This document shows, piece after piece, positions 33,571 to 61,100 of a stretch of DNA of 64,000 nucleotides. Source of the stretch: a virus (lineage: Duplodnaviria > Caudoviricetes); the IMG/VR virus record IMGVR_UViG_3300037067_004891, positions 320,001-384,000 of that record. One strand, 5' to 3'. The position numbers and the translations under genes were made by a program. The notes below the pieces were generated by a model. That model worked only from the letters and a program-made list of their open reading frames with translations. It made no database searches and was not told the DNA's origin. The first letter of the stretch is position 1, and each line of letters begins with the position of its first letter.

Positions 33571-35229
33571 ATGCCTAAAATTCAAGGAAAACAATTAGCT
33601 GGAAATACAATAACACAGGATTTATTGAATTTAACTACTCCAAACTCAGGTGAAACGCTTAGTGGTGCAACAGTAGAGTATGTAAACAACGCACTTATTT
33701 CAGTAAGTGGTTCATCTGTTATTGGTCAGGCTGAAGACTCAGAAGGTTACATCGATGGTATTTTCACCGATTTTACACCAAACACCCCAGTTGGAGTGGC
33801 AATTGATAGATTTAATGAGATGATACTTTTGTTAGCTCCAGCCCCACCAAGTAATAGTTGGGATAATGTTTTTACTAATTTAATTTTAGGCGAAACATTA
33901 TATTCAGCAAGAGCTTTAACAAGTGGTAGTGCAGTTTCAAATATTACAACAATATCTACACCAACAATCAATTTAACAACAGACACAGTTGGAATAAGTG
34001 ATGCTGCAAAATCCTTACCAACAAGCACAAACACATTAACTTTTATATTAAGTGATAGTGTGAATGGTACACTCGAAACAGAAGTTATTAATTCAGGTAG
34101 TACTGGAGATGTAACTGGGTATATACGATACACTGTTGCTGATCCATATGATGGTCAATCAGGAAAACAAGGTTTTTGGACTGGTATAACAGCTTTTTCT
34201 GTTACTGGTGATATGTCACCAGCTTTATCCGCAAGTGCTACACAAAAAACATTAACTTACACTCACCCTGGTTCAGATTCACCCGAAACATTTAATTATT
34301 ATTATGATATTCCAGCAACTGTAACAATTGATACTATTACAGTCACTATGCCAGCTATGACAAGATATGTCAGTGGTGTGCCTTCTTTAGCAACTGGTGA
34401 TTCTATAACAGATATTGCTTTTAATATCAATAACGTTGCAAGTTATTTTTATGCATCTACCTCAGTTTGGCAAATAAACGCTGGTTTAATTGGTGGATCA
34501 ACTGGTGATCCAGATTCTATTCCAGTATCAAATGCTGAAACTGGTGTTGTTACAAACAAAACAGCAACAGTTTTAACTAATCAATATAGTGACACATCAT
34601 TTAGTTTTACTGTAAGAGGAAGAAATTTTATTGGAACATATGGTAGTAATGCTACTTTCACTGATAGTACTTATAGAGTTGATACAGTTTCTAATGAAAC
34701 TATACGTAGAGTATCTGGTACTGGAAGTTATCCAGTGGGTAGTTGGGGTGGTATATTTGATTCTACACAATCATTAATGGGAACTTATACATCAGAACTT
34801 ATGTTGAAAAACAACATATATCAATATCCTTCTGGTAATTATACAACATTTGGTGGCCCTGATTATTCAGGAGCTGCTGGAACTCGTTGGGTAACATTTA
34901 ACTTAGGTAATTTTACTAATAATGGTGCTTTTACTTTAACATTTGTCAATCCTGTTGGTATCACATCCATTGGACAACTTAACTTATTAGTTGAGATTAA
35001 AATATCTGGTTCAACTTATTGGGTTGATGGAAATACTGCTTATTCTGGTGTTGGAAATCCAGGTTCGACTGTTGATGGTGTTGCTGCTGTTGTAACTGGA
35101 AGTTCAACTGCTACTGCAAGAAGAATAACATTTGGTTCAATTACATATTCAGGTGCTATTATAGTAAGAATTGGTATAACTGGACTTGGTGTAACATTTG
35201 CTGGATTGACAGCAACAAGCTTAGTTTAA
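33571..35229 (+). CDS. Virion fibre/decoration protein (GKQ N-terminus)
   Basis: MPKIQGKQL; S/T/G-rich; paralog of 25594; TAATATATA at 33520. Confidence 0.7.
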   Translation: MPKIQGKQLAGNTITQDLLNLTTPNSGETLSGATVEYVNNALISVSGSSVIGQAEDSEGYIDGIFTDFTPNTPVGVAIDRFNEMILLLAPAPPSNSWDNVFTNLILGETLYSARALTSGSAVSNITTISTPTINLTTDTVGISDAAKSLPTSTNTLTFILSDSVNGTLETEVINSGSTGDVTGYIRYTVADPYDGQSGKQGFWTGITAFSVTGDMSPALSASATQKTLTYTHPGSDSPETFNYYYDIPATVTIDTITVTMPAMTRYVSGVPSLATGDSITDIAFNINNVASYFYASTSVWQINAGLIGGSTGDPDSIPVSNAETGVVTNKTATVLTNQYSDTSFSFTVRGRNFIGTYGSNATFTDSTYRVDTVSNETIRRVSGTGSYPVGSWGGIFDSTQSLMGTYTSELMLKNNIYQYPSGNYTTFGGPDYSGAAGTRWVTFNLGNFTNNGAFTLTFVNPVGITSIGQLNLLVEIKISGSTYWVDGNTAYSGVGNPGSTVDGVAAVVTGSSTATARRITFGSITYSGAIIVRIGITGLGVTFAGLTATSLV

Positions 35230-35281
35230 AAATGAAATAATTTTTTATTAAATATAAAACAAAAAATAATATAATATAAAA

Positions 35282-37411
35282 ATGGCTTTAACTCCCGAAC
35301 AAAAATCAAGTAGGCTCTTTAAAAAATCCCTTGGTGCATCAGAATCTTTAACAACTAAAGATTTTTTTGAAGAAGCTAAATTGGGGAAAACATCTATATT
35401 ACCAAGTCAAATATGGTCAGAAGCTGCGAGTATACCAAACACTGCTCCAACACTAACAAATAATCAAATTGATGGTGTAGTTCAGTTTTTTGAAAAACTT
35501 GCTCTGACACATATTCCTGGTTCTACAGATAAAGCATATTTCCATGAATCTTTAAAAAATTGTATACCATTTAATTTTGGAGATGGTTCCTATAACTATG
35601 GTTTATATAAAAGTGATGATACCACTCAAATTGCATTCGGTGAAGGTGATTGGTTAATTGATACCGAGGCTGGAGTATTAACTTTTTATGGTACGTTACC
35701 TACTGTTGTATCAGCAGCAGCACCACCACATCTTACTTTTTATAAATATGTGGGTGCATTAGGTTTACCTTCTGGCTCAACTGCTGGATTAAACGTTCAT
35801 GATTCAGTTAAATATGCTACAACTGGACAGACTGATGCCACATATTCAACTGCTACTACTGGATTTACAACATTACCTTCTAATGTAGATGGTGCAACTT
35901 TGTTTGATGAAGGTGATAGAATTTTAATAAAAAATCAAGCAACTGCATATGAAAATGGTGTTTATATTGTAAGTGGAACTACACTTGTAAGAGCTGAAGA
36001 TTCGAATGGTCAACCATTTGGTGAAGTTTCACTTAATGATTATGTTTTTGTAACATCAGGTGCAACAAATATTGCAACATCATGGGTTATTGGGAATTCA
36101 AGTTCATTAAATTCACAAGGATATATAACAGTTGGTGTTGATTCACAGATTTGGACAATTTTCGCAACAAGTAAAGCTTATAGTGCAGATGGTATGGCAT
36201 TAAAATTAAATGGTAGTGAATTTGGTATTGATTTGGATGATACTGAATTTAGTGGTTCAACTTTTCATAATTACAATTCTGGTTTATATCAGAGTATCGA
36301 TGGATTAAGACTTGCAACACCTGTTGTTACAGATATATTTGAATTGAGTGGTATAACAACTTCATTAACAAGTGATTTGTCATCATTAGAAACTGTTATT
36401 AGTTCAGATTATGCATCTTTATCAAGTGCAATTTCAACTGAATCTTCTACAAGAAGTGATGAAACCACATCTTTAGAAACATCAATTAATACATTAACTG
36501 GTCAAACAGCTTCATTATCAACTGCTATTTCAACAGAAAATTCTGGTAGAGAATCTGCGGATACGTCCATAATAACTGCTATTAATAATTTGAGTGGTGT
36601 TACTGTTCAGACTGCTGGTTCAGGTTTAACATTTGATTCTTTAGAACAATCATTAAATGTGAATGTTGATGGTTTAACTATTGAAATTTCAAGTGATATC
36701 TTAAAAGTAGCAAGTGGTTATACAACATCTTTAGAAACATCAATAAGTAATGTTACAACAGGTCTAACATCATTAGAAACTGTCATTTCAAATAACACAT
36801 CAACTATTACTGTTTTAAGTGGACAAACAACATCACTATCTACTGCAATTTCAACAGAAACATCAAATAGATTTTCTGAAGTTTCATCATTAGAAACTAT
36901 TATTAGTTCAGATTATACAACTTTATCAAGTGCAATTTCAACTGAATCTTCTACAAGAAATGACGGTGATATTTCATTAACAACTGCTATTAATAATTTG
37001 AGTGGTGTTACTGCTCAGACTGCTGGTTCAGGTTTAACATTTGATTCTTTAGAACAATCATTAAATGTAAATGTTGATGATTATACAATTAAAATTGTAA
37101 ATGATCAATTGAGAGGTGCGCAAATTTGGATTCAATCGACATATTCAGCTACTATTGTTTCTGGAACAACTGGTTCAACAGGTTTAGTTTTAGCATATGA
37201 ACCAATAACACCAGTTCAAGCCAGTGTAAATGGAGTCGAATATCTAATAAGTTTAACTACAACAAGTCAAACAAATATGCCATTCTATTTTAATGCAGCA
37301 CCAGCAGTACAAGGTTCTACTTTATACTATGATGCCTCAGAAGCTGGTTTTGGTATTGATACTGGAGTTGATTTAATTATTATTAAATATTCATATATTT
37401 CTTTAGTTTAA
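35282..37411 (+). CDS. Fibre protein with SLST coiled-coil repeats
   Basis: GDRILIKNQ...ENGVY...RAED tail-fibre motif; SLSTAISTE.S.R repeats; internal near-exact DNA duplications. Confidence 0.75.
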   Translation: MALTPEQKSSRLFKKSLGASESLTTKDFFEEAKLGKTSILPSQIWSEAASIPNTAPTLTNNQIDGVVQFFEKLALTHIPGSTDKAYFHESLKNCIPFNFGDGSYNYGLYKSDDTTQIAFGEGDWLIDTEAGVLTFYGTLPTVVSAAAPPHLTFYKYVGALGLPSGSTAGLNVHDSVKYATTGQTDATYSTATTGFTTLPSNVDGATLFDEGDRILIKNQATAYENGVYIVSGTTLVRAEDSNGQPFGEVSLNDYVFVTSGATNIATSWVIGNSSSLNSQGYITVGVDSQIWTIFATSKAYSADGMALKLNGSEFGIDLDDTEFSGSTFHNYNSGLYQSIDGLRLATPVVTDIFELSGITTSLTSDLSSLETVISSDYASLSSAISTESSTRSDETTSLETSINTLTGQTASLSTAISTENSGRESADTSIITAINNLSGVTVQTAGSGLTFDSLEQSLNVNVDGLTIEISSDILKVASGYTTSLETSISNVTTGLTSLETVISNNTSTITVLSGQTTSLSTAISTETSNRFSEVSSLETIISSDYTTLSSAISTESSTRNDGDISLTTAINNLSGVTAQTAGSGLTFDSLEQSLNVNVDDYTIKIVNDQLRGAQIWIQSTYSATIVSGTTGSTGLVLAYEPITPVQASVNGVEYLISLTTTSQTNMPFYFNAAPAVQGSTLYYDASEAGFGIDTGVDLIIIKYSYISLV

Positions 37412-37429
37412 TACACGTTAATTGTAATA

Positions 37430-37477
37430 TTTTTTATAATAAAAAAGAGGATTTTACCTCTTTTTTATTATAAAAAA
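37430..37477. terminator. Perfect 21-bp inverted repeat, probable terminator
   Basis: TTTTTTATAATAAAAAAGAGG-ATTTTA-CCTCTTTTTTATTATAAAAAA. Confidence 0.75.
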
Positions 37478-37598
37478 TGAAACAAAAATAAACAATTCAC
37501 CAAAAACATATTCAAACAAATATTAAAAATATTTGAATATTAAAATATATAAAACGTTGATTATTTTTTTTAATATATAATAAAAAAAAATATTTTTT

Positions 37599-39533
37599 AT
37601 GAAAATAAAGGGTAAACAGCTCGATGATAATACTATTTTTCAAAATAATTTATCTTTGACTACCCCAGTATTTAATACAGATGCAGCAACAAAAGAATAT
37701 GTAGATTTATTATCTTCGACAGAATATATTAATGTATCCAATAAAGGGATGGCTGCTATTTCAACTTCGGGTATAACTGGTGCTACAATAGCTTGTAATA
37801 CGTCTATATCAGAAACACCAACAACAGGTTGTTATATTATGGTATTAATCAATAAATTACAAGTTGATGTTGGAATTGGTAAAGAATGTTTTTTTTCTAA
37901 TGATGGTGGAGTTACCGCAAGAGTTTCTGGTGAAGAACAATTAGGTGATTTTTTATATTGGAATACAAATATTGCACCATATGATTTAGAAATAACAGAT
38001 GAAATCGATTTTATTTATATTAAAAGTGAATCGGCTATATCTGGTACTACAAACACTGAAACAATTTCAAGGACTATTTATGTTAGCCCTACGGGTAATG
38101 ACGGAACTGGTGATGGAAGTATATCACTACCATTTGCAACACCATTACGAGCTTTCATGAATATTAAAGAAGTAATAGGAGAGAACATTGATATTACAAT
38201 TAATTTTGCATCAGGTATTTACACATGGGATTGTGCTGCAATAAGAGAAGAGACAAGAAAAAAATATATAAGTAAAGCTGCTGGAATAATAATAAATGGA
38301 ACATCGGTCACTGATGTAAGTGGTTTAACTATAACTACAGTGGGGGGAGATACTCCTTACATATATAATGTTACGGGAGCTACTTTTACTACAAATCAAT
38401 ATCAGGACTATTTTATAAGTGATGAGGCAATTTGGTATCCTATTGTTAAAAATGGTACAACTACTATTAATAGTAATATAGCTGCTGCTGGTCATACTCT
38501 GATAACACATAACGGGGTAACATTTAATTTAACTGATACTGATATGGGTATTATGTCTAAATGTCATTCTACTGGTTCTGTCACTTTAAATATTACTAAT
38601 GTAAATTTAATATCGACAGTAACAGTAAGATTAGTATTTGGTGGAGTAATAAATTTATATTTCAGTAAAATAGTAGGGGGATTCGTTACTTTTCCTTTTG
38701 AAACAGGAAGATTAAACATACGTGGTTGTGTTATTGCCACGAGTGCAGGTGGGATTATTTCAAATAATTCACTTCAAATTAGGCACACTTCAATTAGAAA
38801 AACAGGAAGTAAAGCAGGACAGGGCTTAACCTTATGTAGGTTAAATGAAAAAACAAATTTTTTGTCTGCGTATGGCGTTTATATAAGTAATTTTGCTGTG
38901 GGGATTTATTTTGATGCAGATGGAGGAGCAAATGATATGAATCAGGGTAGTGGATCATTAATTTTAGATAATTGTACGGATGGTTTTGGTATTAGAAATA
39001 ATTGTTTTATTCATTTTTCTGCTGTAGAATCAAAGGTCTATATTATAGGAGTAACTAACTTAATAAATAGAGCAGCCTCAAATCAAACAATGCTGTGTAA
39101 TTATGGAGTGACAATTCAAGATTTGTATGGTACACCTACAAACTGGGCAACATCTTACATAACTGCAAATGGTTATAATAATCCTGGGCGAAATATAGCT
39201 ATAAATATTGAGGGACTGTATGGGGAATTTGAATATAATAAAACTGCTACTCTGGCAAATAATTCATCTGGTACTACTGTAATTGGTTCTACTACACAAA
39301 ATAAATCGATATTTATTAAATATACGATAACAAGAGGAACTACACAAGAACAAGGCACAATATGGGTTAATAATAAAAATGATGTTGATATTTCAATCAA
39401 ATCTGAATTTGATGATTGTGGGGTTACATTCGGTAAACAAATATCAAGTACTGCAATTAATTTAACTTGGGTAACGACAAATACAGGAACAGCAGCAACA
39501 TTTAGATATGATATTGACAGAATAATGATATAA
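37599..39533 (+). CDS. Fibre/tailspike-like protein (GKQ N-terminus, FSNDGG module, beta-helix-like body)
   Basis: MKIKGKQL, DAATKEYVD, TIYVSPTGNDGTGDGS..PFAT..RA. Confidence 0.7.
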   Translation: MKIKGKQLDDNTIFQNNLSLTTPVFNTDAATKEYVDLLSSTEYINVSNKGMAAISTSGITGATIACNTSISETPTTGCYIMVLINKLQVDVGIGKECFFSNDGGVTARVSGEEQLGDFLYWNTNIAPYDLEITDEIDFIYIKSESAISGTTNTETISRTIYVSPTGNDGTGDGSISLPFATPLRAFMNIKEVIGENIDITINFASGIYTWDCAAIREETRKKYISKAAGIIINGTSVTDVSGLTITTVGGDTPYIYNVTGATFTTNQYQDYFISDEAIWYPIVKNGTTTINSNIAAAGHTLITHNGVTFNLTDTDMGIMSKCHSTGSVTLNITNVNLISTVTVRLVFGGVINLYFSKIVGGFVTFPFETGRLNIRGCVIATSAGGIISNNSLQIRHTSIRKTGSKAGQGLTLCRLNEKTNFLSAYGVYISNFAVGIYFDADGGANDMNQGSGSLILDNCTDGFGIRNNCFIHFSAVESKVYIIGVTNLINRAASNQTMLCNYGVTIQDLYGTPTNWATSYITANGYNNPGRNIAINIEGLYGEFEYNKTATLANNSSGTTVIGSTTQNKSIFIKYTITRGTTQEQGTIWVNNKNDVDISIKSEFDDCGVTFGKQISSTAINLTWVTTNTGTAATFRYDIDRIMI

Positions 39534-39556
39534 ATATAAAATATAAAATAACAAAA

Positions 39557-41413
39557 ATGTCAAGAATAAAAGAACCAAGTTATAAAGTAACAACAACTAA
39601 TACTGATGGTATTATATTTAATTCAACAAATGGTGGAAATATAGTATTATCAGCAACTACGGGTATTATAATATTATCAGCACCGAGTGGTGTTACAAGC
39701 AGTGGTGATTGTAGTTTATATTATACTGATAGATCATTTGTAGATAAGGGATATGTTGATAGTAAAACAATTTCGGGTGCAACAAATATTGGAAGTGGTA
39801 CTACAATATATAGTGGAATAAGTGGTCAAACATTGATATTTAATACAATTATTGGGAGTGGAAATACAACAGTTCAAAAAATTGGAAATGAGATTATAAT
39901 AGCAACTGTTGATGAAATTGAAACAGTTTCAAGAACTATTTATGTAAGCACTACGGGTGATGATGAAACTGGTACGGGATTAATAGCTGCACCTTTTAGA
40001 AATATTTTAAGAGCGTTACAAGATATAAAAGATAATGTAGAGGGGGTAACAATAACAATATCTTTAGGAGGTATTGGTGATTTTCCTGTAACTTACGATG
40101 AAATGTATGAGTTAGCTAAAAAGACTTTTATAAATTCTATTTTAGAAATTACAGGTTCTGATTATACTACAATTGAAAGTGGATTTACATTAACTAAGAC
40201 AGCAAATAGGTGCTTTGCTTATACACTTACAAAGGCAGGTGTAACAGTAACAATTGATCAGTATAGAGATTATTTTATTTCTACGGGTTCAGCATATTAT
40301 CCTATAGCTTATAATGCTTCTGGTACAACTGCTTTTGAGGTTGAATATTTGCATGAGTCTTCGTTAACACCAACATCAATTATTGAGTGGGGAGCAACAA
40401 TTACAAATCCAGGTAATTTCACTAATTTATTAGATTTAAGTTTAAAAAATAATTCAATAATTAGTTTTAATAATCTTAATTTTAATAATGGTACAAACGA
40501 TCTTGCTATAAGTAATTCTTATAAAGAATTTAATAACATTAAATTTAGTTCGTTATCTATAAAAATAGGAGATAATAGTGCTTATTTGTCAAGTCAAAAT
40601 TTTATAAGTTGTATTTTTATAAATTCTGCTACGGTTAGTAATTTTTTCATATTAGGTAAAAAAGCAAATACTTTATTTACTCGTTGTTTAATCGAAGCTA
40701 AAATGACAACTCAAGCTGCTTTAGTATTTAACGGAAACAACATAACAAGTGTCAATAATGCTTTTTATATAAATGGAAATAATGTAGGAACTGCAATTTA
40801 TAGTAAATTAACAGCCAATAATTATTTCTCCGTATCTTATCGATTAAAAGTAAAAGGTTTTACTAATTTTTTGTCAGCACACCGAAACATGGTAATTACA
40901 GCCCAAAATAGTGCCTCTGTATTTTATACTGAATTTACTAATGTTACTAATTTATTAAGTAGTGTTCCAACATTTGGATTAAAATTAGAATTATCTGGAA
41001 TATATGGTTCATTGCCAACTAACATTATTAACGGAGTAACGTCAGGCTACATTTTTGTTGACCCTAAGAATGATATTCACATTTCAGTTCCTGGTGTTTA
41101 CGGTGAATATGAACCTTCGGTAGTTGTTACTCTCGCAAACAATTCAGGTAGTACAATTATTGTGGGTGATATAACACAAAACAAATTTTTATATATTGAC
41201 TATACTATTTCTCGTTCTGGTTTAACTGAAGGTGGTACTATATTAATGACCAATAAGACAGGTACTGATATAGTAGACAACGATGAATTCGATGATACTG
41301 GTGTAACGTTCACAAAAATAGTTGTTGGTAGTTCTATCAATTTAGGGTGGACAACAACTAATACTGGATCATCTGCCATACTAACTTTCAGTGTGAGACG
41401 AATTTTAACTTAA
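39557..41413 (+). CDS. Fibre/tailspike-like protein, paralog of 37599
   Basis: VDKGYVD, TIYVSTTGDDETG; shared C-terminal TLANNS...EFDD.GVTF...W.TTNTG. Confidence 0.7.
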   Translation: MSRIKEPSYKVTTTNTDGIIFNSTNGGNIVLSATTGIIILSAPSGVTSSGDCSLYYTDRSFVDKGYVDSKTISGATNIGSGTTIYSGISGQTLIFNTIIGSGNTTVQKIGNEIIIATVDEIETVSRTIYVSTTGDDETGTGLIAAPFRNILRALQDIKDNVEGVTITISLGGIGDFPVTYDEMYELAKKTFINSILEITGSDYTTIESGFTLTKTANRCFAYTLTKAGVTVTIDQYRDYFISTGSAYYPIAYNASGTTAFEVEYLHESSLTPTSIIEWGATITNPGNFTNLLDLSLKNNSIISFNNLNFNNGTNDLAISNSYKEFNNIKFSSLSIKIGDNSAYLSSQNFISCIFINSATVSNFFILGKKANTLFTRCLIEAKMTTQAALVFNGNNITSVNNAFYINGNNVGTAIYSKLTANNYFSVSYRLKVKGFTNFLSAHRNMVITAQNSASVFYTEFTNVTNLLSSVPTFGLKLELSGIYGSLPTNIINGVTSGYIFVDPKNDIHISVPGVYGEYEPSVVVTLANNSGSTIIVGDITQNKFLYIDYTISRSGLTEGGTILMTNKTGTDIVDNDEFDDTGVTFTKIVVGSSINLGWTTTNTGSSAILTFSVRRILT

Positions 41414-41506
41414 TGAGAATTTTTAGTTAAAAATTGATCATATTTTTAAAGTGGTAGTTCATTAAGAAACCTTTTTATTTTTTTTTGTGTGTTAAAAATT
41501 TATGTA

Positions 41507-41837
41507 TGAACAACCGCTAAACTAAAATATTTAGTGGTATCCTCTTAAAAATTAAGAGAACTTTGATTTTTTAATTCAAAGGCTTGTTCATAAAAGCAAA
41601 CATGAGATGTTTTAAAAACATATTTAAACTCATTTTATTTTTTGATAGTCAGTCAAATTTTTAACCATAAACTGGGTTAAAACAGTAAAAATGACTTGTT
41701 TACTTTTTTGATTTACTTTGACTAAGATTTTAGTTAAAAACCAAATATATCAAAGAACTTCTTTTTTATTTATATATTAAAATGTTTTGGTTCTGTTTTA
41801 ATTTAATTTTGAAATTCATCCACGAAGCTGGTTTTCT
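41507..41837 (-). mobile_element. Degenerate non-autonomous IS200/IS605 element C
   Basis: Minus strand: partly deleted left end GCTTCGTGGATGAATTTC, TAATATATA, shared AAGTTCTTTGAT...AAAAGTA leader, right end CCACTAAAT...TTTAGCGGTTGTTCA. Confidence 0.7.
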
Positions 41838-41923
41838 TTTAAGAAAATATAAAAACATATTTTTTATTTAATATATAATGTCAAATTATGTAATAAATAA
41901 TTAAAAAAAAATATGTTTTTAAT

Positions 41924-43858
41924 ATGGCTCAATTATTAAAAGGTAAGCAGATTGCACAGCAAACCATAACTATAAAAGGTGCAACTGGTAATGTTGTGGT
42001 TCAAGGTGACTTAGATATGTCCACATATAATGTGGTAATATCTGGAACACCTACTGCCAACAATCAAGCTGTTAATAAGGCTTATGTTGATGCAGTAGCA
42101 CAAGGATTAATACCACATCCACCAGTAAAAGTTGTAGCACTTACAACCGTAGCATCATTAACAGGACTTACAACAGTAGATGGATACTCTTTATCTGCTG
42201 ATGATAGAGTTCTTTTAGTCAATCAAGGTGGAACAGGTGTTGGTGATTCTGATATTCAAAATGGTTTATGGTTAGCAAAAGCTGGCGCATGGTTAAGACC
42301 AACAGATGCAGATGGTACACCTGAAAACGAAGTTGCTTTAGGTGATTTTGTGTATGTTGAAACTGGTACTACTTATACATCATCAGGTTGGGTGTTAGCT
42401 GGTACTGATGGAAACTCAAATAATAATATTGAAGTTGGTATAGAAGCTCAACAATGGGTACAAGTTTCCGCACCTGGACAATATGGTACAGATGGTGAAG
42501 GTATTGAACTCGTTGGAAACATATTTAATCTTGAATTAGATGGTTCAACTTTAAGTAAAACATCTTCTGGTATAAGAGTTGCAGCATCAGTAATAACAGT
42601 TATTTCAAATAATCAAAGTAACACGACATCATTATCAACAGCTATTTCAAGTGAGCTTTCTACAAGAGGTACTGCGGACACATCATTATCAACAGCTATT
42701 TCTGGAAATACATCTGCTACAACATCATTATCAACAGCTATTTCAACAGAAGTGTCTACAAGAACATCTACTGATTCAACTTTATCAACAGCTATTTCAA
42801 CAGAAACTTCAACAAGAAATTCAGTTGATGTTTCATTATCAACTGCAATAAATAATAGTATTACTGGTTTAACCAATGGCAATGGAACAACCGCAAACGG
42901 AACTGCTGTAAATTTTGGGGGAATATTATCTGATAATACCTATATAGATTTAAGTTCAAGCACAATGGAATTTTGGGGTGAATATGGGGAGATTGCAATG
43001 GGACGGGGTATATCAGAATCGGGTGATTATGATTATCTTGGGATCGATGGTCTTGGAATAAATGTAACAACTGAAAATGGACAAGGTATTAAATATGTAG
43101 CAGATTATTCTAAAACATTACTTGATAATTCATTAGTTAATAAAGGATTTGTGACAGGTTACACATCAGGTATGACTTTAAATATATCTTCTTTATCAAC
43201 AGCTATTTCAACTGAAGCTTCAACAAGAACTTCTACTGATTCAACCTTATCGACAACTATTTCAACTGAAGCATCTACAAGAACATCTGCTGATACATCT
43301 TTAGCTACTGGTATTTCAACTACTGTTTCAACAGAAGCCTCTATAAGAGCATCAGCCGATACTTCGTTAAGTACTGAAATTGCTGCTATTACTTCTGGTT
43401 CTACTGCTGGTGTTGATTCATTATCAACAGCATTATCGAATGAAATATCTACAAGAGGTACTGCTGACACATCATTATCAACAACTATTTCAACTGAAGC
43501 ATCTACAAGAACATCTGCTGATTCTTCATTAGCAACAGCAATCAGTAATATTCAAGCTCCAAGTTATTTCGAGCAGTTATTAACTCCAGCAATAAGTGGT
43601 TCTTCAACTGCTGTAAATATTGGTACTGCTTTTGCTCACGGTGTAACTGGTGGGGTAATTGATGAATCTACTGTTATAGTATTCTTTAACGGCATTGAAT
43701 ATACCTTCGAATATGTACAAGGTTCACCTGCTGTATTCCATACAAACGGTGTCACACCTACATCTGCTGGAACTCCATTATATTTTGATGGTGTAGAAGC
43801 TGGTTTCGCAATCGAAACAACTGATGACGTTAAAATTAAATATGTAGTAACTACATAA
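41924..43858 (+). CDS. Fibre protein with extensive SLST repeats (GKQ N-terminus)
   Basis: LLKGKQI, AVNKAYVD, DRVLLVNQ...QNGLW; about 9 SLSTAISTE.STR.S.D units. Confidence 0.78.
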   Translation: MAQLLKGKQIAQQTITIKGATGNVVVQGDLDMSTYNVVISGTPTANNQAVNKAYVDAVAQGLIPHPPVKVVALTTVASLTGLTTVDGYSLSADDRVLLVNQGGTGVGDSDIQNGLWLAKAGAWLRPTDADGTPENEVALGDFVYVETGTTYTSSGWVLAGTDGNSNNNIEVGIEAQQWVQVSAPGQYGTDGEGIELVGNIFNLELDGSTLSKTSSGIRVAASVITVISNNQSNTTSLSTAISSELSTRGTADTSLSTAISGNTSATTSLSTAISTEVSTRTSTDSTLSTAISTETSTRNSVDVSLSTAINNSITGLTNGNGTTANGTAVNFGGILSDNTYIDLSSSTMEFWGEYGEIAMGRGISESGDYDYLGIDGLGINVTTENGQGIKYVADYSKTLLDNSLVNKGFVTGYTSGMTLNISSLSTAISTEASTRTSTDSTLSTTISTEASTRTSADTSLATGISTTVSTEASIRASADTSLSTEIAAITSGSTAGVDSLSTALSNEISTRGTADTSLSTTISTEASTRTSADSSLATAISNIQAPSYFEQLLTPAISGSSTAVNIGTAFAHGVTGGVIDESTVIVFFNGIEYTFEYVQGSPAVFHTNGVTPTSAGTPLYFDGVEAGFAIETTDDVKIKYVVTT

Positions 43859-43895
43859 TTATTTATAATATTTTAAAATTGTTATAACGTTTAAC

Positions 43896-43938
43896 AAAAA
43901 CTGCTTATCTGCTAACTAATGTGGATAAGCAGTTTTTT
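43896..43938 (+). terminator. Intrinsic terminator
   Basis: AAAAACTGCTTATC...GATAAGCAGTTTTTT. Confidence 0.75.
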
Positions 43939-44021
43939 ATACAGATAATGTCCTAATTATTTAGTGATGAACCCAAAACATTTTAATAAATACATTAAAA
44001 TTAAAAAATGATTTTTTATTT

Positions 44022-45653
44022 ATGGAATCAAAATTAAATATTGGAATAACAATTTTTTTACATGAAGAAAATCAAAGTGTATGGACTAATGGTATATTAC
44101 AAAATGCGATTTTTTTGACAAAAACATTTCAAAATTCAATTCAAAATTATAACGTATATCTTGTCAATATGAGTAATATTAATATTACAAATAAATTAGG
44201 TTGGAATATAGAAAAATATAAAACGGTTCAATTTGATGAAATAAAAGATAAATTAGATATTATTTTTCCACTTGGTGGGTCTATTGATAAACCAACTACT
44301 GAATATTTGAGGAATAGAGGATGTAAAGTTGTACCATATAAATGTGGTAATGAATATATTATTAGTATGGAAAATATAATTTTTAACAGACAAGATATAG
44401 TTAAAGATTATCCAGAAGTTGATCAAGTTTGGAATATTCCACAAATGGAAAATACTAATCACCATTATTGGAGAATTTTACACAATGCCGAAACTATTAC
44501 TATACCATTCGTCTGGAATTCTATGTTTTTAGACCAACATATCGATGAATTAAAAAGACAAGGAAAAAATCCTTATTATACACCAAGTAAACTAAGTAAA
44601 AAAATTTCGATTTTCGAACCTAATATAAATGTTTATAAATTTTTAATGTATCCAATGTTAATTATAGAAGATGCATATAGAGAATATCCCGAACTGTTTC
44701 ATAGTGTGAAAGTTACAAACACACAGAAAGTTAGATTAACTAAAGAACTTAGTTCTATCATGAATCATTTAAGCATAGTTAAAGATAAAAAAACAACATT
44801 TGAGAATCGATTTCCGATTACTTGGTTTTTAACTGAACATACGGATGTTGTGGTTTCTCATCAATGGGAAAACGCTTTAAATTATGCATATCTGGATGCC
44901 ATATATTTAGGTTACCCGTTGGTTCATAATGCACATCTTTGTAAAGAATGCGGGTATTATTATGAAGGTTTTGATGTAAATGAAGGAAAAGATAAACTTA
45001 TTTATGCTTTAACTGAACATGATAATAATTTGGAAGAATATGCTGAAAAAAATAAAAAAATTTTAGAAAAATATTCATCTGATAATATTGAGAATGTTAA
45101 AAAATATGATGAATTGATTAATAATATAATGGGTTCTAAATCTCTTGCCGAAAAATTTGTACCTACCAGTTATGGTGCGTTTAAATCGGAAATAAAAGAT
45201 TATGTTTTAGATAAATATGATAAAGAGGCTAAGATATTAGATGTTGGTGCTGGATGTGGTACATATGCTAATATTTTAAAAGAATATAAAAATATTGATG
45301 CTATTGAAATTTATAAACCATATATTAAAAAATATGATTTAAAAAAGAAATATAAAAATATATTTAACTTAAATATTATTGATTTTGAATTTAATTTTTA
45401 TGATATAATTATATTAGGTGATGTTTTAGAACACTTAGAAATAGAAGATGCCCAAAAATTAATAAATAAATTATATAATAAATGTGAAGATTTAATAATA
45501 AGTGTTCCATATCTTATGATACAACATGGTCTTGAAAATAAACATGAAGATCACATTCAAGATGATTTAACAGAAGAAATAATGGAAACAAGATATCCTA
45601 ATTTAAAGAAAATGTGGAGCAATAATACAATTGCTATTTATTTTAAAAAATAA
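44022..45653 (+). CDS. DUF2827-like putative glycosyltransferase fused to a class I SAM methyltransferase
   Basis: WTNGILQN, VWNIPQ, FEPNI, SHQWENALNY, YPLVHN, GYYY..FD; C-terminal ILDVGAGCG, GDVLEH. Confidence 0.7.
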   Translation: MESKLNIGITIFLHEENQSVWTNGILQNAIFLTKTFQNSIQNYNVYLVNMSNINITNKLGWNIEKYKTVQFDEIKDKLDIIFPLGGSIDKPTTEYLRNRGCKVVPYKCGNEYIISMENIIFNRQDIVKDYPEVDQVWNIPQMENTNHHYWRILHNAETITIPFVWNSMFLDQHIDELKRQGKNPYYTPSKLSKKISIFEPNINVYKFLMYPMLIIEDAYREYPELFHSVKVTNTQKVRLTKELSSIMNHLSIVKDKKTTFENRFPITWFLTEHTDVVVSHQWENALNYAYLDAIYLGYPLVHNAHLCKECGYYYEGFDVNEGKDKLIYALTEHDNNLEEYAEKNKKILEKYSSDNIENVKKYDELINNIMGSKSLAEKFVPTSYGAFKSEIKDYVLDKYDKEAKILDVGAGCGTYANILKEYKNIDAIEIYKPYIKKYDLKKKYKNIFNLNIIDFEFNFYDIIILGDVLEHLEIEDAQKLINKLYNKCEDLIISVPYLMIQHGLENKHEDHIQDDLTEEIMETRYPNLKKMWSNNTIAIYFKK

Positions 45654-45662
45654 AATATTAGA

Positions 45663-46772
45663 ATGACAAATATCGCTATTACAATAGGTGTCAAAGAAGA
45701 TAATGAGAATTTATGGATTAATGGTATAAAATTAAATGCTCTATACTTAGCCAAATTACTTAAAAATATTGGAAAATATAATGTGTTCTTCGCTAATACA
45801 ACAAGTAAAGATATAACAAAATATGATTTTGATACAAAAGAATTTCCAGTATACCATATATCTGAGGTAAAAAACGATATCGATATATTAATATCCCTTG
45901 GTGGTCAGATAGATCATGATATGACCATGTTTTTGAAAAATAAAAAAACAAAAATTGTATCTTATAAGTGTGGTGATGAATATGTAATTCGAATGGAAAA
46001 TGTTTTGTTTAATCAAGATGTCGGTAACATAAAGATATGGTGTAACCCCGATTATGATGAAATATGGACAGTTCCACAGATATATGAACATAATTATTAT
46101 TATTTTAAACGGTTTCATAAAAACAAAAATTTAAAAACTGTTCCATTTATATGGAATTCGTTTATAATTGATGATCTGGTTCAGAAAATGGATAATAAAC
46201 CTATTTATAAACCATCAGACAAACCAAAATCATTGGCTATTTTAGAACCAAACCAAAATGTTTTAAAATATGCTATGTATCCAATTTTGATTGCTGATGA
46301 AGCATATGAAAAAAACCCCGAATTAATTGAAAAATTATATGTAACAAATACATCCAAAATAAGAACAAATAAAGTTTTTATTGAATATATGAATCATCTG
46401 AAAATTGTTCAAGATAAAAAAGCTACTTTTGAAGATAGATTTTCTACCGTTGATTTCTTAGCTAATTATGCTGATATTGTAATAAGTCATCAGTGGGATA
46501 ATGTTTTAAATTATTTTTATTTGGATGTTGCATATCTTGGACATGCTATATTACACAATGCACCAATGTGTAAAAATATTGGTTATTATTACAATAGGTT
46601 CGATGGTGATAACGCAGCTAAAAAATTATCATGGATTCTTAAAAATCATGATAAAAATTTGGATAATTATAATGAAGTAAATAAAAAAATATTATTCTCA
46701 TATGATGCTGATAATGAAATCAATATCAACACTTATGATAATTTATTAAAAACGCTCATTAAAAAATATTAA
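45663..46772 (+). CDS. DUF2827-like putative glycosyltransferase
   Basis: WINGIKLN, IWTVPQ, LEPN, SHQWDNVLNY, GYYY..FD; paralog of the preceding gene. Confidence 0.7.
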   Translation: MTNIAITIGVKEDNENLWINGIKLNALYLAKLLKNIGKYNVFFANTTSKDITKYDFDTKEFPVYHISEVKNDIDILISLGGQIDHDMTMFLKNKKTKIVSYKCGDEYVIRMENVLFNQDVGNIKIWCNPDYDEIWTVPQIYEHNYYYFKRFHKNKNLKTVPFIWNSFIIDDLVQKMDNKPIYKPSDKPKSLAILEPNQNVLKYAMYPILIADEAYEKNPELIEKLYVTNTSKIRTNKVFIEYMNHLKIVQDKKATFEDRFSTVDFLANYADIVISHQWDNVLNYFYLDVAYLGHAILHNAPMCKNIGYYYNRFDGDNAAKKLSWILKNHDKNLDNYNEVNKKILFSYDADNEININTYDNLLKTLIKKY

Positions 46773-46778
46773 ACTTAA

Positions 46779-47585
46779 ATGAAAGATGGTATATCAATTG
46801 TGATGGCTTATCATAATAGGAGAGAACAATTAATTAGAACTTTAAATTCTATTAATGAAACTAAATATGATAAATCGAAATTAGAAATTATTATCATTAA
46901 CGATAATAGTTTAGAACAACATTCGATAGATGATTTACTATCTTTATTTAATAGTTTGAAAATTCGGATTTTCAATATTAAGAAAGAACAGAAGAAATGG
47001 ACATGTTCATGTGTGCCATATAATATAGGATTTAATAACGTTCAATATAATAAAATACTTTTTCAAAACCCTGAGTGTTATCATATAGGAGATATCTTAT
47101 CGGACATTAATTTAAATTTATCCAATAATAATTATATACCATATGCGTGTTATTCCATAGGTGAAAAGGAATATATAGATAATGATTATAATAATTTAGT
47201 TTATGAACACGTTCAACCAACTCATGCATGTTCCAACGGGTGGTATAATCATTCTAAAATAAATTCAAAATGTTATCATTTCGCTTCTGCAATAACTACT
47301 GATAATTTATACAAAATAGGTGGGTTCGATGAAGATTATAAAGATGGTATTGCTTTCGATGATAATGAGATATTAAGAAGAATTAGGTTGTTGGGTCTAA
47401 ATATAAATATTATAGATTATCCATATGTTATCCATCAGTGGCACGATAGTGTTTATCATTTCAATGCATTGACATCTGAAGATGAAAAAAAGAAAATTAT
47501 GGAATTATTTTATAAAAATCAGAATTTATATGATAATGGTGTTTTAACATATAAAGCAAAAAACAATTTTTATTTTAATCCGTGA
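46779..47585 (+). CDS. Glycosyltransferase family 2
   Basis: ISIVMAYHNR, IIINDNS, IGGFDEDY...DDNE, HQWH. Confidence 0.85.
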   Translation: MKDGISIVMAYHNRREQLIRTLNSINETKYDKSKLEIIIINDNSLEQHSIDDLLSLFNSLKIRIFNIKKEQKKWTCSCVPYNIGFNNVQYNKILFQNPECYHIGDILSDINLNLSNNNYIPYACYSIGEKEYIDNDYNNLVYEHVQPTHACSNGWYNHSKINSKCYHFASAITTDNLYKIGGFDEDYKDGIAFDDNEILRRIRLLGLNINIIDYPYVIHQWHDSVYHFNALTSEDEKKKIMELFYKNQNLYDNGVLTYKAKNNFYFNP

Positions 47586-48265
47586 ATAATCAAAAAATAA
47601 AATATATTCAACTATATGCTGAACGACACACTGGTTCAAAATGGTTTGAAGATTGTATTAAACAATATTTGGTTATTCATAGTTATTTATTTCATTTAGG
47701 TTGGAAACATTTCTTTCCAGATATTTATACTATTGATAAAACATATTTAGATGAATATCTTTTCATAGTATTGAGTCGAAACCCATATGATTGGACAAAA
47801 TCTATGAATGAAAACCCATATCATGCACATATTTCTCTTAGAAATAAACCGTTAAATGATTTTATTAAAATGCCTTGGATTAGTGTACATGAAAAGAAGT
47901 TGAATAAAGAAAATGATTTATATCAGGAAAAAGAAATGTATTTTGAGAGAAATCCTCAAACATTATTACCATTTACAAATATAATAGAAATGAGGAATAT
48001 GAAAAATCAATATTTTATAAATTTAAAAAATATAGTTTCAAATATCAAAATTATTAGATATGAAGACATATGCACTGATATTGTAAAGATAATGAGTGAT
48101 ATATCTGATGAATTTAAAATATATAAAACAAATCGAAGAACAACTTATAATTCAATACCAAAAATGAGAAAAGAAATTGATGAGGATTCTTTAGATTTTA
48201 TAAATAAAAATATTAACTGGGAAGTTGAAAAATTTTTAGGATATGAAAAAAGAATTATTAATTAA
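47582..48265 (+). CDS. Putative sulfotransferase
   Basis: ERHTGS (5'-PSB-like), RNPYDWTKS (3'-PB-like), IRYED. Confidence 0.6.
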   Translation: MNNQKIKYIQLYAERHTGSKWFEDCIKQYLVIHSYLFHLGWKHFFPDIYTIDKTYLDEYLFIVLSRNPYDWTKSMNENPYHAHISLRNKPLNDFIKMPWISVHEKKLNKENDLYQEKEMYFERNPQTLLPFTNIIEMRNMKNQYFINLKNIVSNIKIIRYEDICTDIVKIMSDISDEFKIYKTNRRTTYNSIPKMRKEIDEDSLDFINKNINWEVEKFLGYEKRIIN

Positions 48266-48738
48266 TGTTTGAAGCAGAAAAAAGGGCAGGTGATATAGCA
48301 GAAGAAAATTTTCGTAATTTATTTGAAAGTAAAGGGTATACTGTTAATAAAACAAATTTTCAAGATGATGTGTATAATCATTTTGATTTTATAGTAGAAA
48401 AGGATGGAGTTGTTAAGAAATTTGAAGTAAAAGCAGCTAAAAAAGATGATAGAAATGATAATAAAGCATCATTTGAAATGACTTGGATAGAACTAAAAGG
48501 AATTAAAGGTTATTCAGGGTGGGTATATGGTCAGGCTGATTATTTTGCTTTTGAACAAAAAGAAGGTTTTATTATATCAAAACGAAAAGATATAGTCGAT
48601 TTAATTCTTCAAAAATTAGTCGATAATAATTTTGAAAGGGGAAAAGGAATGTATCAAATATATGGTAGAGAAGGTAGGGAAGATATTATAGTTAAAATTC
48701 TTTTCAAAGATTTAGAAAACAAACGTATTGTGAAATGA
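48265..48738 (+). CDS. PD-(D/E)xK nuclease-like protein
   Basis: AEE.F...HFDF...FEVK...WIELK...GWVYG.ADY. Confidence 0.6.
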   Translation: MFEAEKRAGDIAEENFRNLFESKGYTVNKTNFQDDVYNHFDFIVEKDGVVKKFEVKAAKKDDRNDNKASFEMTWIELKGIKGYSGWVYGQADYFAFEQKEGFIISKRKDIVDLILQKLVDNNFERGKGMYQIYGREGREDIIVKILFKDLENKRIVK

Positions 48739-50389: not shown

Positions 50390-50404
50390 AATCAAATCAA
50401 ATCG

Positions 50405-51927: not shown

Positions 51928-51937
51928 AAATACTATC

Positions 51938-52555: not shown

Positions 52556-52559
52556 TCAC

Positions 52560-53285: not shown

Positions 53286-53294
53286 TAATGTAAT

Positions 53295-54970: not shown

Positions 54971-55009
54971 TAAAATGATTAAACCCAATTTTTGTTTATA
55001 TATAAATAT

Positions 55010-59465: not shown

Positions 59466-59489
59466 AAACTAAAAAATAAATATTTATAT

Positions 59490-60407: not shown

Positions 60408-60418
60408 AAAATAAGAAA

Positions 60419-61057: not shown

Positions 61058-61100
61058 AAACTTTTTATCTGAAATTATCTACATATTAAAAAAGCTCCGA

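Follow-up and report, generated by a model that had tools for sequence, protein, structure and literature searches.

DUF2827 proteins encoded beside SLST-repeat fibres of a phage are candidate O-glycosyltransferases for SLST repeats of phages and bacteria

Genes for proteins of the DUF2827 family (PF10933) recur next to genes for fibrous proteins with serine- and threonine-rich SLST repeats, both in phages and in bacteria. In the giant-phage DNA described here, a pair of DUF2827 proteins, g44022 and g45663, probably glycosylates Ser and Thr residues of the phage's own SLST fibres, with a downstream gene island completing the glycan and the same enzyme-repeat pairing acting on bacterial adhesins. 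The bacterial link between DUF2827 and adhesins and the proposal that DUF2827 proteins are glycosyltransferases are already known from a 2026 bioRxiv preprint (10.64898/2026.01.22.700529), which ties DUF2827 to neither SLST repeats nor viruses. The specificity of DUF2827 for SLST repeats and its spread through T4-like phages and megaphages are new.

Results

Fibre genes and SLST repeats

The window analysed is a stretch of 64,000 nucleotides (positions 320,001 to 384,000) of the IMG/VR virus record IMGVR_UViG_3300037067_004891. An original prediction, made from the sequence alone, had proposed a dedicated O-glycosylation system for the fibres; all of its gene coordinates were correct (Table 1).

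Table 1. Features of the fibre module, the DUF2827 pair and the glycan island (coordinates of the window)
Feature	Coordinates	Strand	Remarks
First gene of the fibre module	33571..35229	+	552 aa; 26% S+T; no SLST repeats
g35282, SLST-repeat fibre 1	35282..37411	+	709 aa; 7 motif matches; paralogue of g41924
g37599, fibre/spike paralogue A	37599..39533	+	644 aa; 0 SLST motif matches; paralogue of g39557
g39557, fibre/spike paralogue B	39557..41413	+	618 aa; no SLST repeats
g41924, SLST-repeat fibre 2	41924..43858	+	644 aa; 11 motif matches
Likely intrinsic terminator of the fibre transcript (hairpin, then U-run)	43896..43938	+	-22.2 kcal/mol
g44022, fusion of DUF2827 (residues 7-366) and class I SAM methyltransferase (393-490)	44022..45653	+
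g45663, stand-alone DUF2827, modelled GT-B fold	45663..46772	+	369 aa
Soluble glycan-synthesis island, co-oriented	46779..63497	+	Pfam and hydropathy scan

The SLSTAISTE.STR.S.D repeats noticed in g35282 and g41924 were found again as 18- and 14-residue repeats when matches to the motif [ST]L[SEAT]T[AVGSTE]I[SNA] were counted. In g41924, an N-terminal tail-fibre-type domain (residues 1-235) is followed by repeat blocks at residues 236-310 and 423-545, in which the motif matches are mostly spaced by 18 residues, sometimes by 14 or 22, and the 18-mer consensus is SLSTaIStEtSTRgSADT. g35282 has two repeat blocks (approximately residues 355-440 and 480-570) between an Mtd_N/tail-fibre-like N-terminal domain and a C-terminal domain. 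A local alignment of g35282 with g41924 scores z = 35 against shuffles and marks them as paralogues; the N-terminal domain and the C-terminal domain of about 80 residues are common to both. The very high Ser/Thr content ascribed to them is true of the repeat blocks but not of the whole proteins (28.2% in g35282 and 29.2% in g41924), because only the richest 150-residue windows reach 43% and 47%, respectively. Across all 421,673 bp of the record, just three ORFs of at least 150 aa carry three or more [ST]L[STA]T motifs: g35282, g41924, and an ORF with a Peptidase_S74 chaperone domain, 33 kb downstream. The two strongest are found upstream of the DUF2827 pair, at distances of 0.2 and 6.6 kb.

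g35282 and g41924 are phage tail-fibre or virion-fibre proteins, placed either on the tail or on the head. PHROG virion structural and head-decoration families matched the fibres with E-values down to 3e-19 (in g35282 on residues 168-341), and tblastn with the fibres gave matches to phage genes whose annotations read tail fibre, capsid decoration or virion protein; a Baseplate_J gene precedes one homologue. The model of the g41924 N-terminal domain resembles predicted viral tail-fibre, Mtd_N, and capsid-decoration proteins in BFVD (E down to 8e-17). Neither fibre matched YadA_anchor, YadA_stalk, YadA_head or ESPR at E <= 0.01, as trimeric autotransporters would; YadA_stalk is present in some phage fibres sharing the same N-terminal domain. 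Sequence comparison of the fibre with solved structures gave only chance-level matches, and a PDB fold name for the N-terminal domain was rejected because the best hit, a siphophage baseplate-tail chain with a Z of 4.7, was too weak.

The original prediction omitted the genes g37599 and g39557, which sit between the two SLST fibres and form a separate paralogous pair (z 50). g37599 has no Pfam match and, judged from its sequence, is probably a beta-helix-type receptor-binding protein. The first gene of the module matched nothing in Pfam or PHROG, and its N-terminus, MPKIQGKQL, resembles that of g37599.

The DUF2827 pair and its predicted fold

g44022 and g45663, earlier called DUF2827-like, are true members of the family; they matched PF10933 over its full length (model positions 1-362 of 362) with 392.3 bits (E 2.3e-117) and 343.5 bits (E 1.6e-102), respectively, at a gathering cut-off of 25 bits, and a search over the whole record found these two genes only. 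As had been noticed, they are paralogous, with 43% identity between their DUF2827 domains, and the C-terminal part of g44022 is a class I SAM methyltransferase (Methyltransf_23 on residues 393-490, 28.7 bits against a cut-off of 27; Methyltransf_11, 21.7 bits against 21.2). The g44022 start lies 163 nt from the g41924 stop, and 9 nt separate g44022 from g45663. DUF2827 is a small family, accounting for about 1,560 of the clusters that 1.84 billion proteins form at 50% identity. Across 50 homologues, 28 polar or aromatic columns are invariant, including N20, G21, D74, D132, E195, N197, K202, D271, H276, Q277, and H298, and both paralogues retain all 28; therefore, neither looks degenerate.

The AlphaFold (AF2) model of g45663 (pLDDT 92.7, pTM 0.90) confidently predicts the GT-B glycosyltransferase fold anticipated by the original prediction, with retaining GT4 enzymes as its nearest structural matches. 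The model aligned with BshA (6n1x) at a Z of 24.8 and an rmsd of 3.9 over 323 of 369 residues, followed by WaaB, PimA, and glycogen synthase, and nearly all of its top 50 structural matches were GT-B sugar transferases. Foldseek connected it to BshA and MshA with an E-value of 2e-11. Two protein Ser-O-GlcNAc transferases, SdgB (7ec1, Z 20.3) and GtfA (4pqg, Z 18.9), also resemble the model. The likeness to GT4 is structural only, because neither g44022 nor g45663 matched Glycos_transf_1, the GT4 C-terminal domain model with its EX7E-type motif, at E <= 0.01. The two proteins matched no glycosyltransferase Pfam model besides DUF2827 at this threshold, and the family profile found no solved structure by sequence. 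Folding g45663 together with three g41924 repeats (residues 423-476) gave a score of 0.00 in a run without controls, which speaks neither for nor against binding.

Transcription layout and the glycan island

Because a strong terminator hairpin (z -6.4; 0 of 200 shuffles folded as well) lies between g41924 and g44022, the two genes are separate transcription units. Scanning for promoter and terminator consensus sequences gave promoter-like sites no more often than in shuffles and missed the intergenic hairpin, which folding revealed.

The DUF2827 pair heads about 19 kb of contiguous genes for glycosyltransferases and sugar-nucleotide enzymes. The transferases are three GT2, two GT32-like DXD, one GT10-like, and one weak GT47-like enzyme, and the other genes encode two FkbM methyltransferases, a split transketolase, two NDP-sugar epimerase/dehydratases, and a WecB-type 2-epimerase with an intein. 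A hydropathy scan of the 21 island ORFs found no multi-transmembrane protein; the island thus appears to lack membrane-linked glycan machinery, which fits assembly on a soluble acceptor. Only four multi-transmembrane ORFs, none with a Pfam family, are present in the record, which is about 59% complete, and host enzymes could substitute for the membrane proteins of a lipid-linked (Wzx/Wzy, ABC or OST-type) pathway. While the predicted linkage of enzyme and repeat held, the label of a dedicated fibre system is too narrow, because the pair heads this soluble island.

DUF2827 and repeat fibres in other viruses

DUF2827 is encoded on 215 viral contigs; tblastn of g45663 against 50,697 GenBank phage records gave no match. 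A T4 gp23-type capsid gene was found in 19 of the 29 DUF2827 viral records tested, which identifies them as T4-like phages. A giant-virus origin was rejected: the NCLDV capsid PF04451 was found in neither the phage's own record nor 28 related records, and while this search had no positive control and is weak alone, the gp23 result decides the question.

When 50 whole viral DUF2827 records were searched with the g41924 repeats, 27 gave matches, and 26 of the 33 repeat-fibre regions lay within 10 kb of DUF2827, as against 6.5 expected. The Fisher-combined p is 7e-11 (2e-8 for the 13 records of at least 100 kb), values that overstate independence because the records are related to each other. The repeats were unmatched in 23 of the 50 records, some of which are 96-100% complete, and a recognisable repeat fibre lay within 10 kb at only 14 of 33 dereplicated DUF2827 loci. 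Because about half of the viral DUF2827 records are without an SLST-like fibre, other acceptors must exist. The repeat fibre is the commonest neighbour gene family of DUF2827, tied with a J-domain-like ORF (18 of the 33 dereplicated loci each). Collagen-like or other very Ser/Thr-rich ORFs lie near DUF2827 in some T4-like loci.

Relatives of the phage preserve the arrangement of fibre and enzyme genes. Fibres, a DUF2827-methyltransferase fusion, and DUF2827 follow one another in L003, while the order in L004 is SLST fibre, DUF2827, a 16-motif SLST fibre, the fusion, and DUF2827. A third phage, L215, of 616 kb, has DUF2827, fibre, DUF2827, DUF2827, and GT2. T4-like phages mostly carry a single DUF2827 gene, whereas tandem sets of two to three occur in bacteria and megaphages. 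In a tree built with FastTree only, viral DUF2827 proteins group in a clade of their own (support 90, not starred), whose sister is one of three bacterial paralogue clades. Orthology of g44022 and g45663 with the bacterial clades was rejected on the same tree, in which both fall within the viral clade and each pairs with a different viral orthologue; that of g44022 is in L006.

DUF2827 and SLST adhesins in bacteria

The preprint (10.64898/2026.01.22.700529) reports 327 DUF2827 genes adjoining trimeric autotransporter adhesins in Burkholderia, Veillonellales, and Pasteurellales, often as two to three tandem copies, and proposes glycosylation. It agrees with the Burkholderia adhesin link stated in the original prediction, as do our own data: an SLST-repeat ORF lay within 10 kb in 57 of 80 bacterial DUF2827 loci, at a median gap of 167 bp. 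Six SLST ORFs tested, from six genera, were all adhesins with ESPR and YadA domains. In 14 genomes, with the anchor-bearing reading frame used for comparison, 13 of 14 adhesins adjoining DUF2827 were SLST-rich, compared with 12 of 35 non-adjacent ones (Fisher p 2e-4, a value that likewise overstates independence, since these records, too, are related). The bacterial link is specific to SLST-type adhesins, not to adhesins in general, and the co-occurrence expected from the original prediction was found in phages and bacteria alike. Among 151 evenly sampled genomes of one order, four carried DUF2827 and three carried SLST repeats, and those three all belonged to the four. In Collimonas-type genomes, the DUF2827 enzymes adjoin no adhesin. 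The bacterial copies fall into three conserved positional paralogue clades.

Phage and bacterial repeats have a common core, SLST[AG][IL]ST, with 7/11/14/18-residue spacing. Ser and Thr are the only residues common to both at high density, and Asp, Glu, and Arg are also conserved in the repeats. With phage repeats as the phmmer query, bacterial adhesins made up only 5 of 45 matches. The Burkholderia adhesins BoaA/BoaB and BCAM2418 have serine-rich repeats that start with SLST, vary in number, and form a trimeric fibrous stalk, and their glycosylation is not reported in the two papers concerned (PMC2955633, PMC7142374). They are like the phage fibres in the core and in the 14/18-residue spacing. 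However, the phage fibres are without ESPR, YadA head, and anchor, and the repeat ends in TExSTRxSxDx in the phage, as opposed to TTNSNVA in the bacterial adhesins.

Discussion

Because the pairing of enzyme and repeat recurs in T4-like phages and beside bacterial SLST adhesins, the DUF2827 enzymes probably decorate the fibres with sugars. In the mechanism that we propose, g44022 and g45663 would be cytoplasmic GT-B glycosyltransferases, GT4-like in structure and, from this similarity, possibly of the retaining type. The likeliest acceptors would be exposed Ser and Thr residues of the SLSTx[IL]ST coiled-coil repeats, which would receive an O-linked sugar, with g41924 as the proposed main substrate and g35282 as another; the third SLST fibre, 33 kb downstream, may be modified as well. 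Inside the infected cell, this transfer would precede or accompany virion assembly. The methyltransferase domain of g44022 and the downstream soluble island would act on the same glycan, extending and methylating it and supplying sugars, to give glycan-coated fibres. In bacteria, the same pairing would operate on SLST-type trimeric autotransporter adhesins before their secretion.

It is also conceivable, but we think unlikely, that the pair simply opens a general glycan island and that the island's product is not attached to the SLST fibres. This product might be a polysaccharide, either free or lipid-linked, a host surface glycan in modified form, or a glycan on other virion proteins, for example the capsid, the sheath or the neighbouring spikes, and the nearness of pair and fibres would stem only from the organisation of the structural and variable region. 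The contiguity of the pair with the island, the terminator that separates it from g41924, the viral records without a recognisable SLST-like fibre, and the collagen-like or Ser/Thr-rich ORFs in some T4-like loci all suit this explanation. Against it, the island offers no candidate for a flippase, polymerase or polyprenyl-phosphate transferase, the adjacency recurs across settings as unrelated as T4-like phages, megaphages, and bacterial adhesin loci, and the bacterial link is SLST-specific and holds at the genome level.

Two further explanations concern what the proteins do to the repeats. One or both DUF2827 proteins could be non-catalytic and, as GtfB does for GtfA, act with their GT-B fold as chaperones or substrate-holding partners while the SLST coiled coils fold, trimerise or are exported; tandem gene sets in bacteria and megaphages and the three positional bacterial clades would suit such a multi-subunit machine. 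Nevertheless, the closest folds are active sugar transferases, both proteins keep every invariant residue, and the single copy in most T4-like phages means that a hetero-complex is not obligatory, which together make this very unlikely. That DUF2827 modifies the repeats other than by an O-linked Ser/Thr sugar, with another nucleotide-activated group or on another residue, might be argued from the varied donors of GT-B enzymes and the conserved Asp, Glu, and Arg. We consider it highly improbable, since only Ser and Thr are dense in both kinds of repeat and the flanking genes encode sugar transferases and nucleotide-sugar enzymes.

A bolder extension, which we regard as doubtful, is that DUF2827 and the SLST coiled-coil repeat travel together as a portable cassette of enzyme and substrate, which has passed from adhesins of bacteria to fibres of phages or the other way, so that phage fibres and adhesin stalks would have modules in common. 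The phage glycan coat would then have a purpose of its own, such as shielding from proteases or defence or mimicry of host glyco-adhesins, and DUF2827 would found a new family of protein O-glycosyltransferases for folded coiled coils in viruses and cells.

Comparison with known systems

The phage locus is like the bacterial DUF2827-adhesin loci in that cytoplasmic PF10933 proteins, proposed glycosyltransferases, are encoded in tandem copies beside a Ser/Thr-rich fibrous surface protein. It differs in having as partner a virion fibre devoid of signal peptide, YadA head, and anchor, in the methyltransferase fused to one copy, and in the 19-kb island that follows. In Gram-positive cocci, serine-rich repeat adhesins are O-GlcNAcylated by GtfA/GtfB and SdgA/SdgB, which are GT4 enzymes with a GT-B fold. 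There, too, a cytoplasmic GT-B enzyme of similar fold is encoded beside a repeat adhesin, Ser is decorated before export, and other transferases extend the glycan. However, these enzymes have no detectable sequence relationship to DUF2827, their substrates are disordered SD or SASA-type repeats as opposed to the SLST coiled coil of the phage, and the SecA2/Y2 export system of the GtfA/GtfB setting is absent here. The DUF2827 paralogues do not belong to the GtfA/GtfB type, being without the split into catalytic and non-catalytic partners and mostly single-copy in T4-like phages.

Among viruses, giant viruses of the Mimivirus type carry glycosylated fibrils (fibril proteins), and mycobacteriophage virions are reportedly glycosylated on capsid and tail-tube tails. 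In both, as proposed here, virus-encoded glycosyltransferases and a sugar pathway coat virion surface proteins; the enzyme families and the substrates differ from those of our phage. We know of no involvement of DUF2827 or SLST repeats in either system. The mycobacteriophage work (Freeman et al. 2023) appears as ref. 80 in PMC12582341.

Significance

Our analysis narrows the vague notion of a possible glycosyltransferase near adhesins to one enzyme and one repeat of about 18 residues. If the proposal is true, a new protein O-glycosylation system would act on SLST-type adhesins such as BoaA/BoaB and BCAM2418, and since these adhesins are under study as adhesion factors and as vaccine antigens, their antigenic surface would need re-reading. 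The 18-residue repeat and its enzyme could then serve as a compact glyco-engineering tag. T4-like phages and megaphages would coat their fibres with sugar, as hitherto documented mainly for mycobacteriophages and giant viruses, and these fibre glycans would bear on host recognition, stability, and immune recognition of the phages.

The fibre genes and their repeats

The window carries five co-oriented fibre or spike genes, among which g35282 and g41924 (genes are named by their start positions) are paralogous (alignment z = 35) and contain blocks of the Ser/Thr-rich SLST repeat, as the original prediction had held. The repeat unit has 18 residues with the consensus SLSTaIStEtSTRgSADT, and 14- and 22-residue variants also occur. 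The very high Ser/Thr content claimed for both fibres is found in the repeat blocks (43-47% in the richest 150 residues) but not over the whole proteins (28-29%). Only one further ORF in the whole record has the motif at a similar density, and it contains a Peptidase_S74 domain, an intramolecular chaperone that is characteristic of trimeric fibres of phages. The core SLST[AG][IL]ST and spacings of 7, 11, 14, and 18 residues are common to the phage and bacterial repeats, and such spacings would be expected of coiled coils.

The N-terminal domain of g41924 matched PHROG virion and head-decoration families as well as phage genes carrying a tail-fibre or capsid-decoration annotation, its model (pLDDT 76) matched predicted viral tail-fibre and Mtd_N-type proteins, and a homologue sits directly after a Baseplate_J gene. 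This domain points to a virion fibre, for which tail and head placement are both possible. Pfam YadA_stalk was found in phage-type proteins sharing the domain (database matches P0158, P0179, P0182, P0187-P0189, P0193, and P0197), and the megaphage homologue P0134 is labelled 'trimeric autotransporter adhesin' by JGI; modules appear to be common to phage fibres and adhesin stalks. The paralogues g37599 and g39557, a separate pair without a Pfam match, share the motif 'YVSxTGxDxTGxG...PF', whose sequence resembles the beginning of a pectate-lyase-type (beta-helix) tailspike. Three large DUF7487 paralogues lie near the fibre module.

Features of the window and of related viral loci
Feature	Position	Strand	Remarks
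TnpB/Cas12f-like ORF	1076-2209		TNB domain, E 3e-14
UvsW-type helicase split by intein	7600-9696		Hint/intein domain ends ORF 7600-8763; Helicase_C in next ORF
DUF7487 paralogue	9698-11548		
DUF7487 paralogue	28801-30393	-	
DUF7487 paralogue	31723-33447	-	
Fibre/spike genes	33,571-43,858		five, co-oriented
SLST-repeat fibre g35282	35282-37411	+	709 aa
Paralogue g37599	37599-39533	+	~630 aa, no SLST repeats
Paralogue g39557	39557-41413	+	~630 aa, no SLST repeats
SLST-repeat fibre g41924	41924-43858	+	644 aa
Hairpin and U-run	43,896-43,938		probable intrinsic terminator
Glycan island	46,779-63,497	+	~19 co-oriented genes after g45663
WecB-type UDP-GlcNAc 2-epimerase	61038-63497		interrupted by LAGLIDADG intein
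J-domain-like ORF, viral locus L008	8614-9195		~200 aa
J-domain-like ORF, viral locus L014	11958-12560		~200 aa
Ser/Thr- or Gly-rich ORF, T4-like phage L035	6915-9344		
Ser/Thr- or Gly-rich ORF, T4-like phage L054	15057-16799		
Polytopic ORF, window's own record (G000:C1, L162)	149203-151662		820 aa, outside the window

The DUF2827 enzymes

The gene g44022 starts 163 nt past g41924, and g45663 follows another 9 nt on. Both were confirmed as DUF2827 proteins, with PF10933 covering its entire model (392 and 343 bits, respectively, against a cut-off of 25), and the predicted fusion was located in g44022, whose residues 393-490 are a class I SAM methyltransferase domain. An AlphaFold2 model of g45663, built on an alignment of 50 homologues, confidently predicted the GT-B fold anticipated for the family (pLDDT 92.7, pTM 0.90). 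Its top structural match was the retaining GT4 enzyme BshA (Z 24.8, rmsd 3.9, 323 residues), followed almost exclusively by GT-B sugar transferases among the top 50, including SdgB (Z 20.3), TarM (20.3), and GtfA (18.9). The latter three have serine-rich repeat proteins or teichoic acid as their glycosylation targets. No solved structure related by sequence to DUF2827 was found, and the GT4 Pfam model matched neither g44022 nor g45663; 'GT4-like' is therefore a structural statement only. Because both proteins keep the 28 columns that are invariant in the family (alignment of 50), both look catalytically competent.

The family comprises 1,562 clusters (50% identity, E ≤ 0.001) among 1.84 billion proteins. 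Many members have an N-terminal extension of ~210-240 residues (P0072, P0119, and many representatives of 580-650 aa), and methyltransferase fusions as in g44022 are rarer. P0072 and P0119, the two with listed domain hits, also match a GT32-like DXD domain (PF04488), so fusions of DUF2827 to a second transferase exist. In a FastTree phylogeny of 127 dereplicated DUF2827 domains, the bacterial sequences formed three clades matching gene order, and the viral ones a single clade (support 90) sister to one of these (96). The domains of g44022 and g45663 both fell within the viral clade, where each had a viral orthologue of its own, so the two phage genes are not a counterpart of the bacterial triplet. 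DUF2827 is single-copy in most T4-like phages, so there is no need to invoke a hetero-complex.

Linkage to SLST repeats in bacteria

A preprint has listed 327 DUF2827 genes within 5 ORFs of trimeric autotransporter adhesins and suggested glycosylation (bioRxiv 10.64898/2026.01.22.700529), and the adhesins BoaA/BoaB and BCAM2418 have been described as having SLST repeats (PMC2955633, PMC7142374). In our search, an SLST ORF, defined by four or more [ST]L[STA]T motifs, lay no more than 10 kb away in 57 of 80 bacterial DUF2827 loci (median gap 167 bp), and six such ORFs, from six genera, carried ESPR, YadA_head, YadA_stalk, or YadA_anchor domains. With the 327 genes of the preprint, these loci bear out the proximity of DUF2827 to adhesins on which the original prediction had drawn.

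The specificity of this linkage was examined by locating all YadA anchors and DUF2827 genes in 14 genomes and fetching 49 adhesin genes, which were classed as SLST-rich (10 or more motifs per 1,000 aa) or SLST-poor (fewer than 5, most with zero). SLST-rich genes made up 13 of the 14 adhesins adjoining DUF2827 versus 12 of the 35 elsewhere (Fisher p 2e-4; p 1e-5 in the 12 genomes with adjacency only). Every one of the 14 genomes had at least one SLST-rich adhesin, including two whose DUF2827 triplet is not beside any adhesin. In Collimonas-type G064 (the genome of bacterial locus L092) and G133, the triplet lies apart from adhesins and 2-6 SLST-rich adhesins are found elsewhere; such separation suggests that DUF2827 acts in trans. 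Of 151 genomes sampled evenly from one order, four had DUF2827; three of these four, and no other genome in the sample, had the SLST repeat (E ≤ 1e-10). The co-occurrence proposed for bacteria was recovered both among neighbouring genes and at the level of whole genomes.

Linkage to SLST repeats in viruses

A DUF2827 relative was encoded on 215 IMG/VR contigs, and tblastn of g45663 against 50,697 GenBank phage records gave no match. The fibre-DUF2827 arrangement is kept in megaphage relatives: the order in the viral locus L004 is SLST fibre, DUF2827, 16-motif SLST fibre, DUF2827-methyltransferase fusion, DUF2827, and glycan island, and that in L215, a third phage of 616 kb, is DUF2827, fibre, DUF2827, DUF2827, and GT2. 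When the g41924 repeat block was used as a query against 50 whole viral DUF2827 records, 27 gave matches, and 26 of the 33 matched ORF regions lay within 10 kb of DUF2827, compared with 6.5 expected from record lengths, so that the co-occurrence predicted for phages was also seen. The Fisher-combined p was 7e-11 (2e-8 in the 13 records of at least 100 kb), values that are upper bounds on significance as the records are related to one another. The link is not universal: the other 23 records, some near-complete, had no repeat-block match, and just 14 of 33 dereplicated loci had an SLST-like fibre within 10 kb.

The commonest DUF2827 neighbours in these 33 loci were the fibre cluster and a ~200-aa J-domain-like ORF (18 each), followed by GT2 (nine). 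The J-domain (DnaJ) match is weak in this ORF (L008, L014, and 16 other viral loci), which may assist fibre folding or glycosylation as a chaperone; none was seen adjoining the pair in the window. In the T4-like phages L035 and L054, extreme Ser/Thr- or Gly-rich ORFs lie within a few kb of DUF2827 and may be alternative acceptors. One encodes collagen repeats and a CBM5/12 domain, and in another S+T rises to 60% over the richest 150 residues.

The glycan island and the phage record

Between g41924 and g44022, folding revealed a strong hairpin with a U-run (-22.2 kcal/mol, z -6.4), which a consensus terminator scan missed. It is probably an intrinsic terminator, so that the DUF2827 enzymes would form a separate transcription unit. 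The downstream island encodes three GT2, two GT32-like DXD, one GT10-like, and one weak GT47-like transferase, together with two FkbM methyltransferases, a split transketolase, two NDP-sugar epimerase/dehydratases, and the intein-containing WecB-type epimerase. A hydropathy scan found no island gene with multiple transmembrane segments, which fits a glycan built on a soluble acceptor rather than a lipid carrier, in a record that is an estimated 59% complete and to whose pathway host enzymes may contribute. The sole large polytopic membrane protein in the record is predicted to cross the membrane ~15 times and matched no Pfam family.

The window spans bases 320,001-384,000 of an IMG/VR virus record (421,673 bp, ~25% G+C). 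Close relatives of this record measure 640-676 kb and carry a capsid gene of the T4 gp23 type, which identifies the source as a megaphage rather than a giant eukaryotic virus. This capsid gene occurred in 19 of 29 DUF2827-bearing viral records tested, and the NCLDV capsid (PF04451) in none of 29 (the own record and 28 related ones; search without a positive control). The TnpB/Cas12f-like ORF indicates a putative IS200/IS605-type element in the phage.

Proposed function

The best explanation of these results is that DUF2827 proteins are cytoplasmic GT-B glycosyltransferases, presumably retaining, whose acceptors would be Ser/Thr residues of SLST-type coiled-coil repeats. The window enzymes would prime O-glycosylation of g41924 and g35282; elongation and modification of the fibre glycan would fall to the fused methyltransferase and the island. 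Rival readings are that the glycan product is unrelated to the fibres, that DUF2827 has a chaperone role, or that the repeats receive a modification other than O-glycosylation; we consider the modelled fold and the genomic linkage best explained by glycosylation of the repeats.

The proposed system would resemble in its workings the GtfA/B-SRRP and SdgA/B-SDR systems, as well as the glycosylation of mycobacteriophage and giant-virus virions, but DUF2827 is not a sequence member of the enzyme families of any of these. Bacterial DUF2827-adhesin adjacency and the glycosyltransferase guess are already public (10.64898/2026.01.22.700529). What is new is the specific link to SLST-type repeats and its co-occurrence at the genome level, the identification of the sampled viral carriers as T4-like phages and megaphages, the J-domain-like ORF as a neighbour, and the lack of matches in GenBank phage records. 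The function proposed here for DUF2827 is directly testable.
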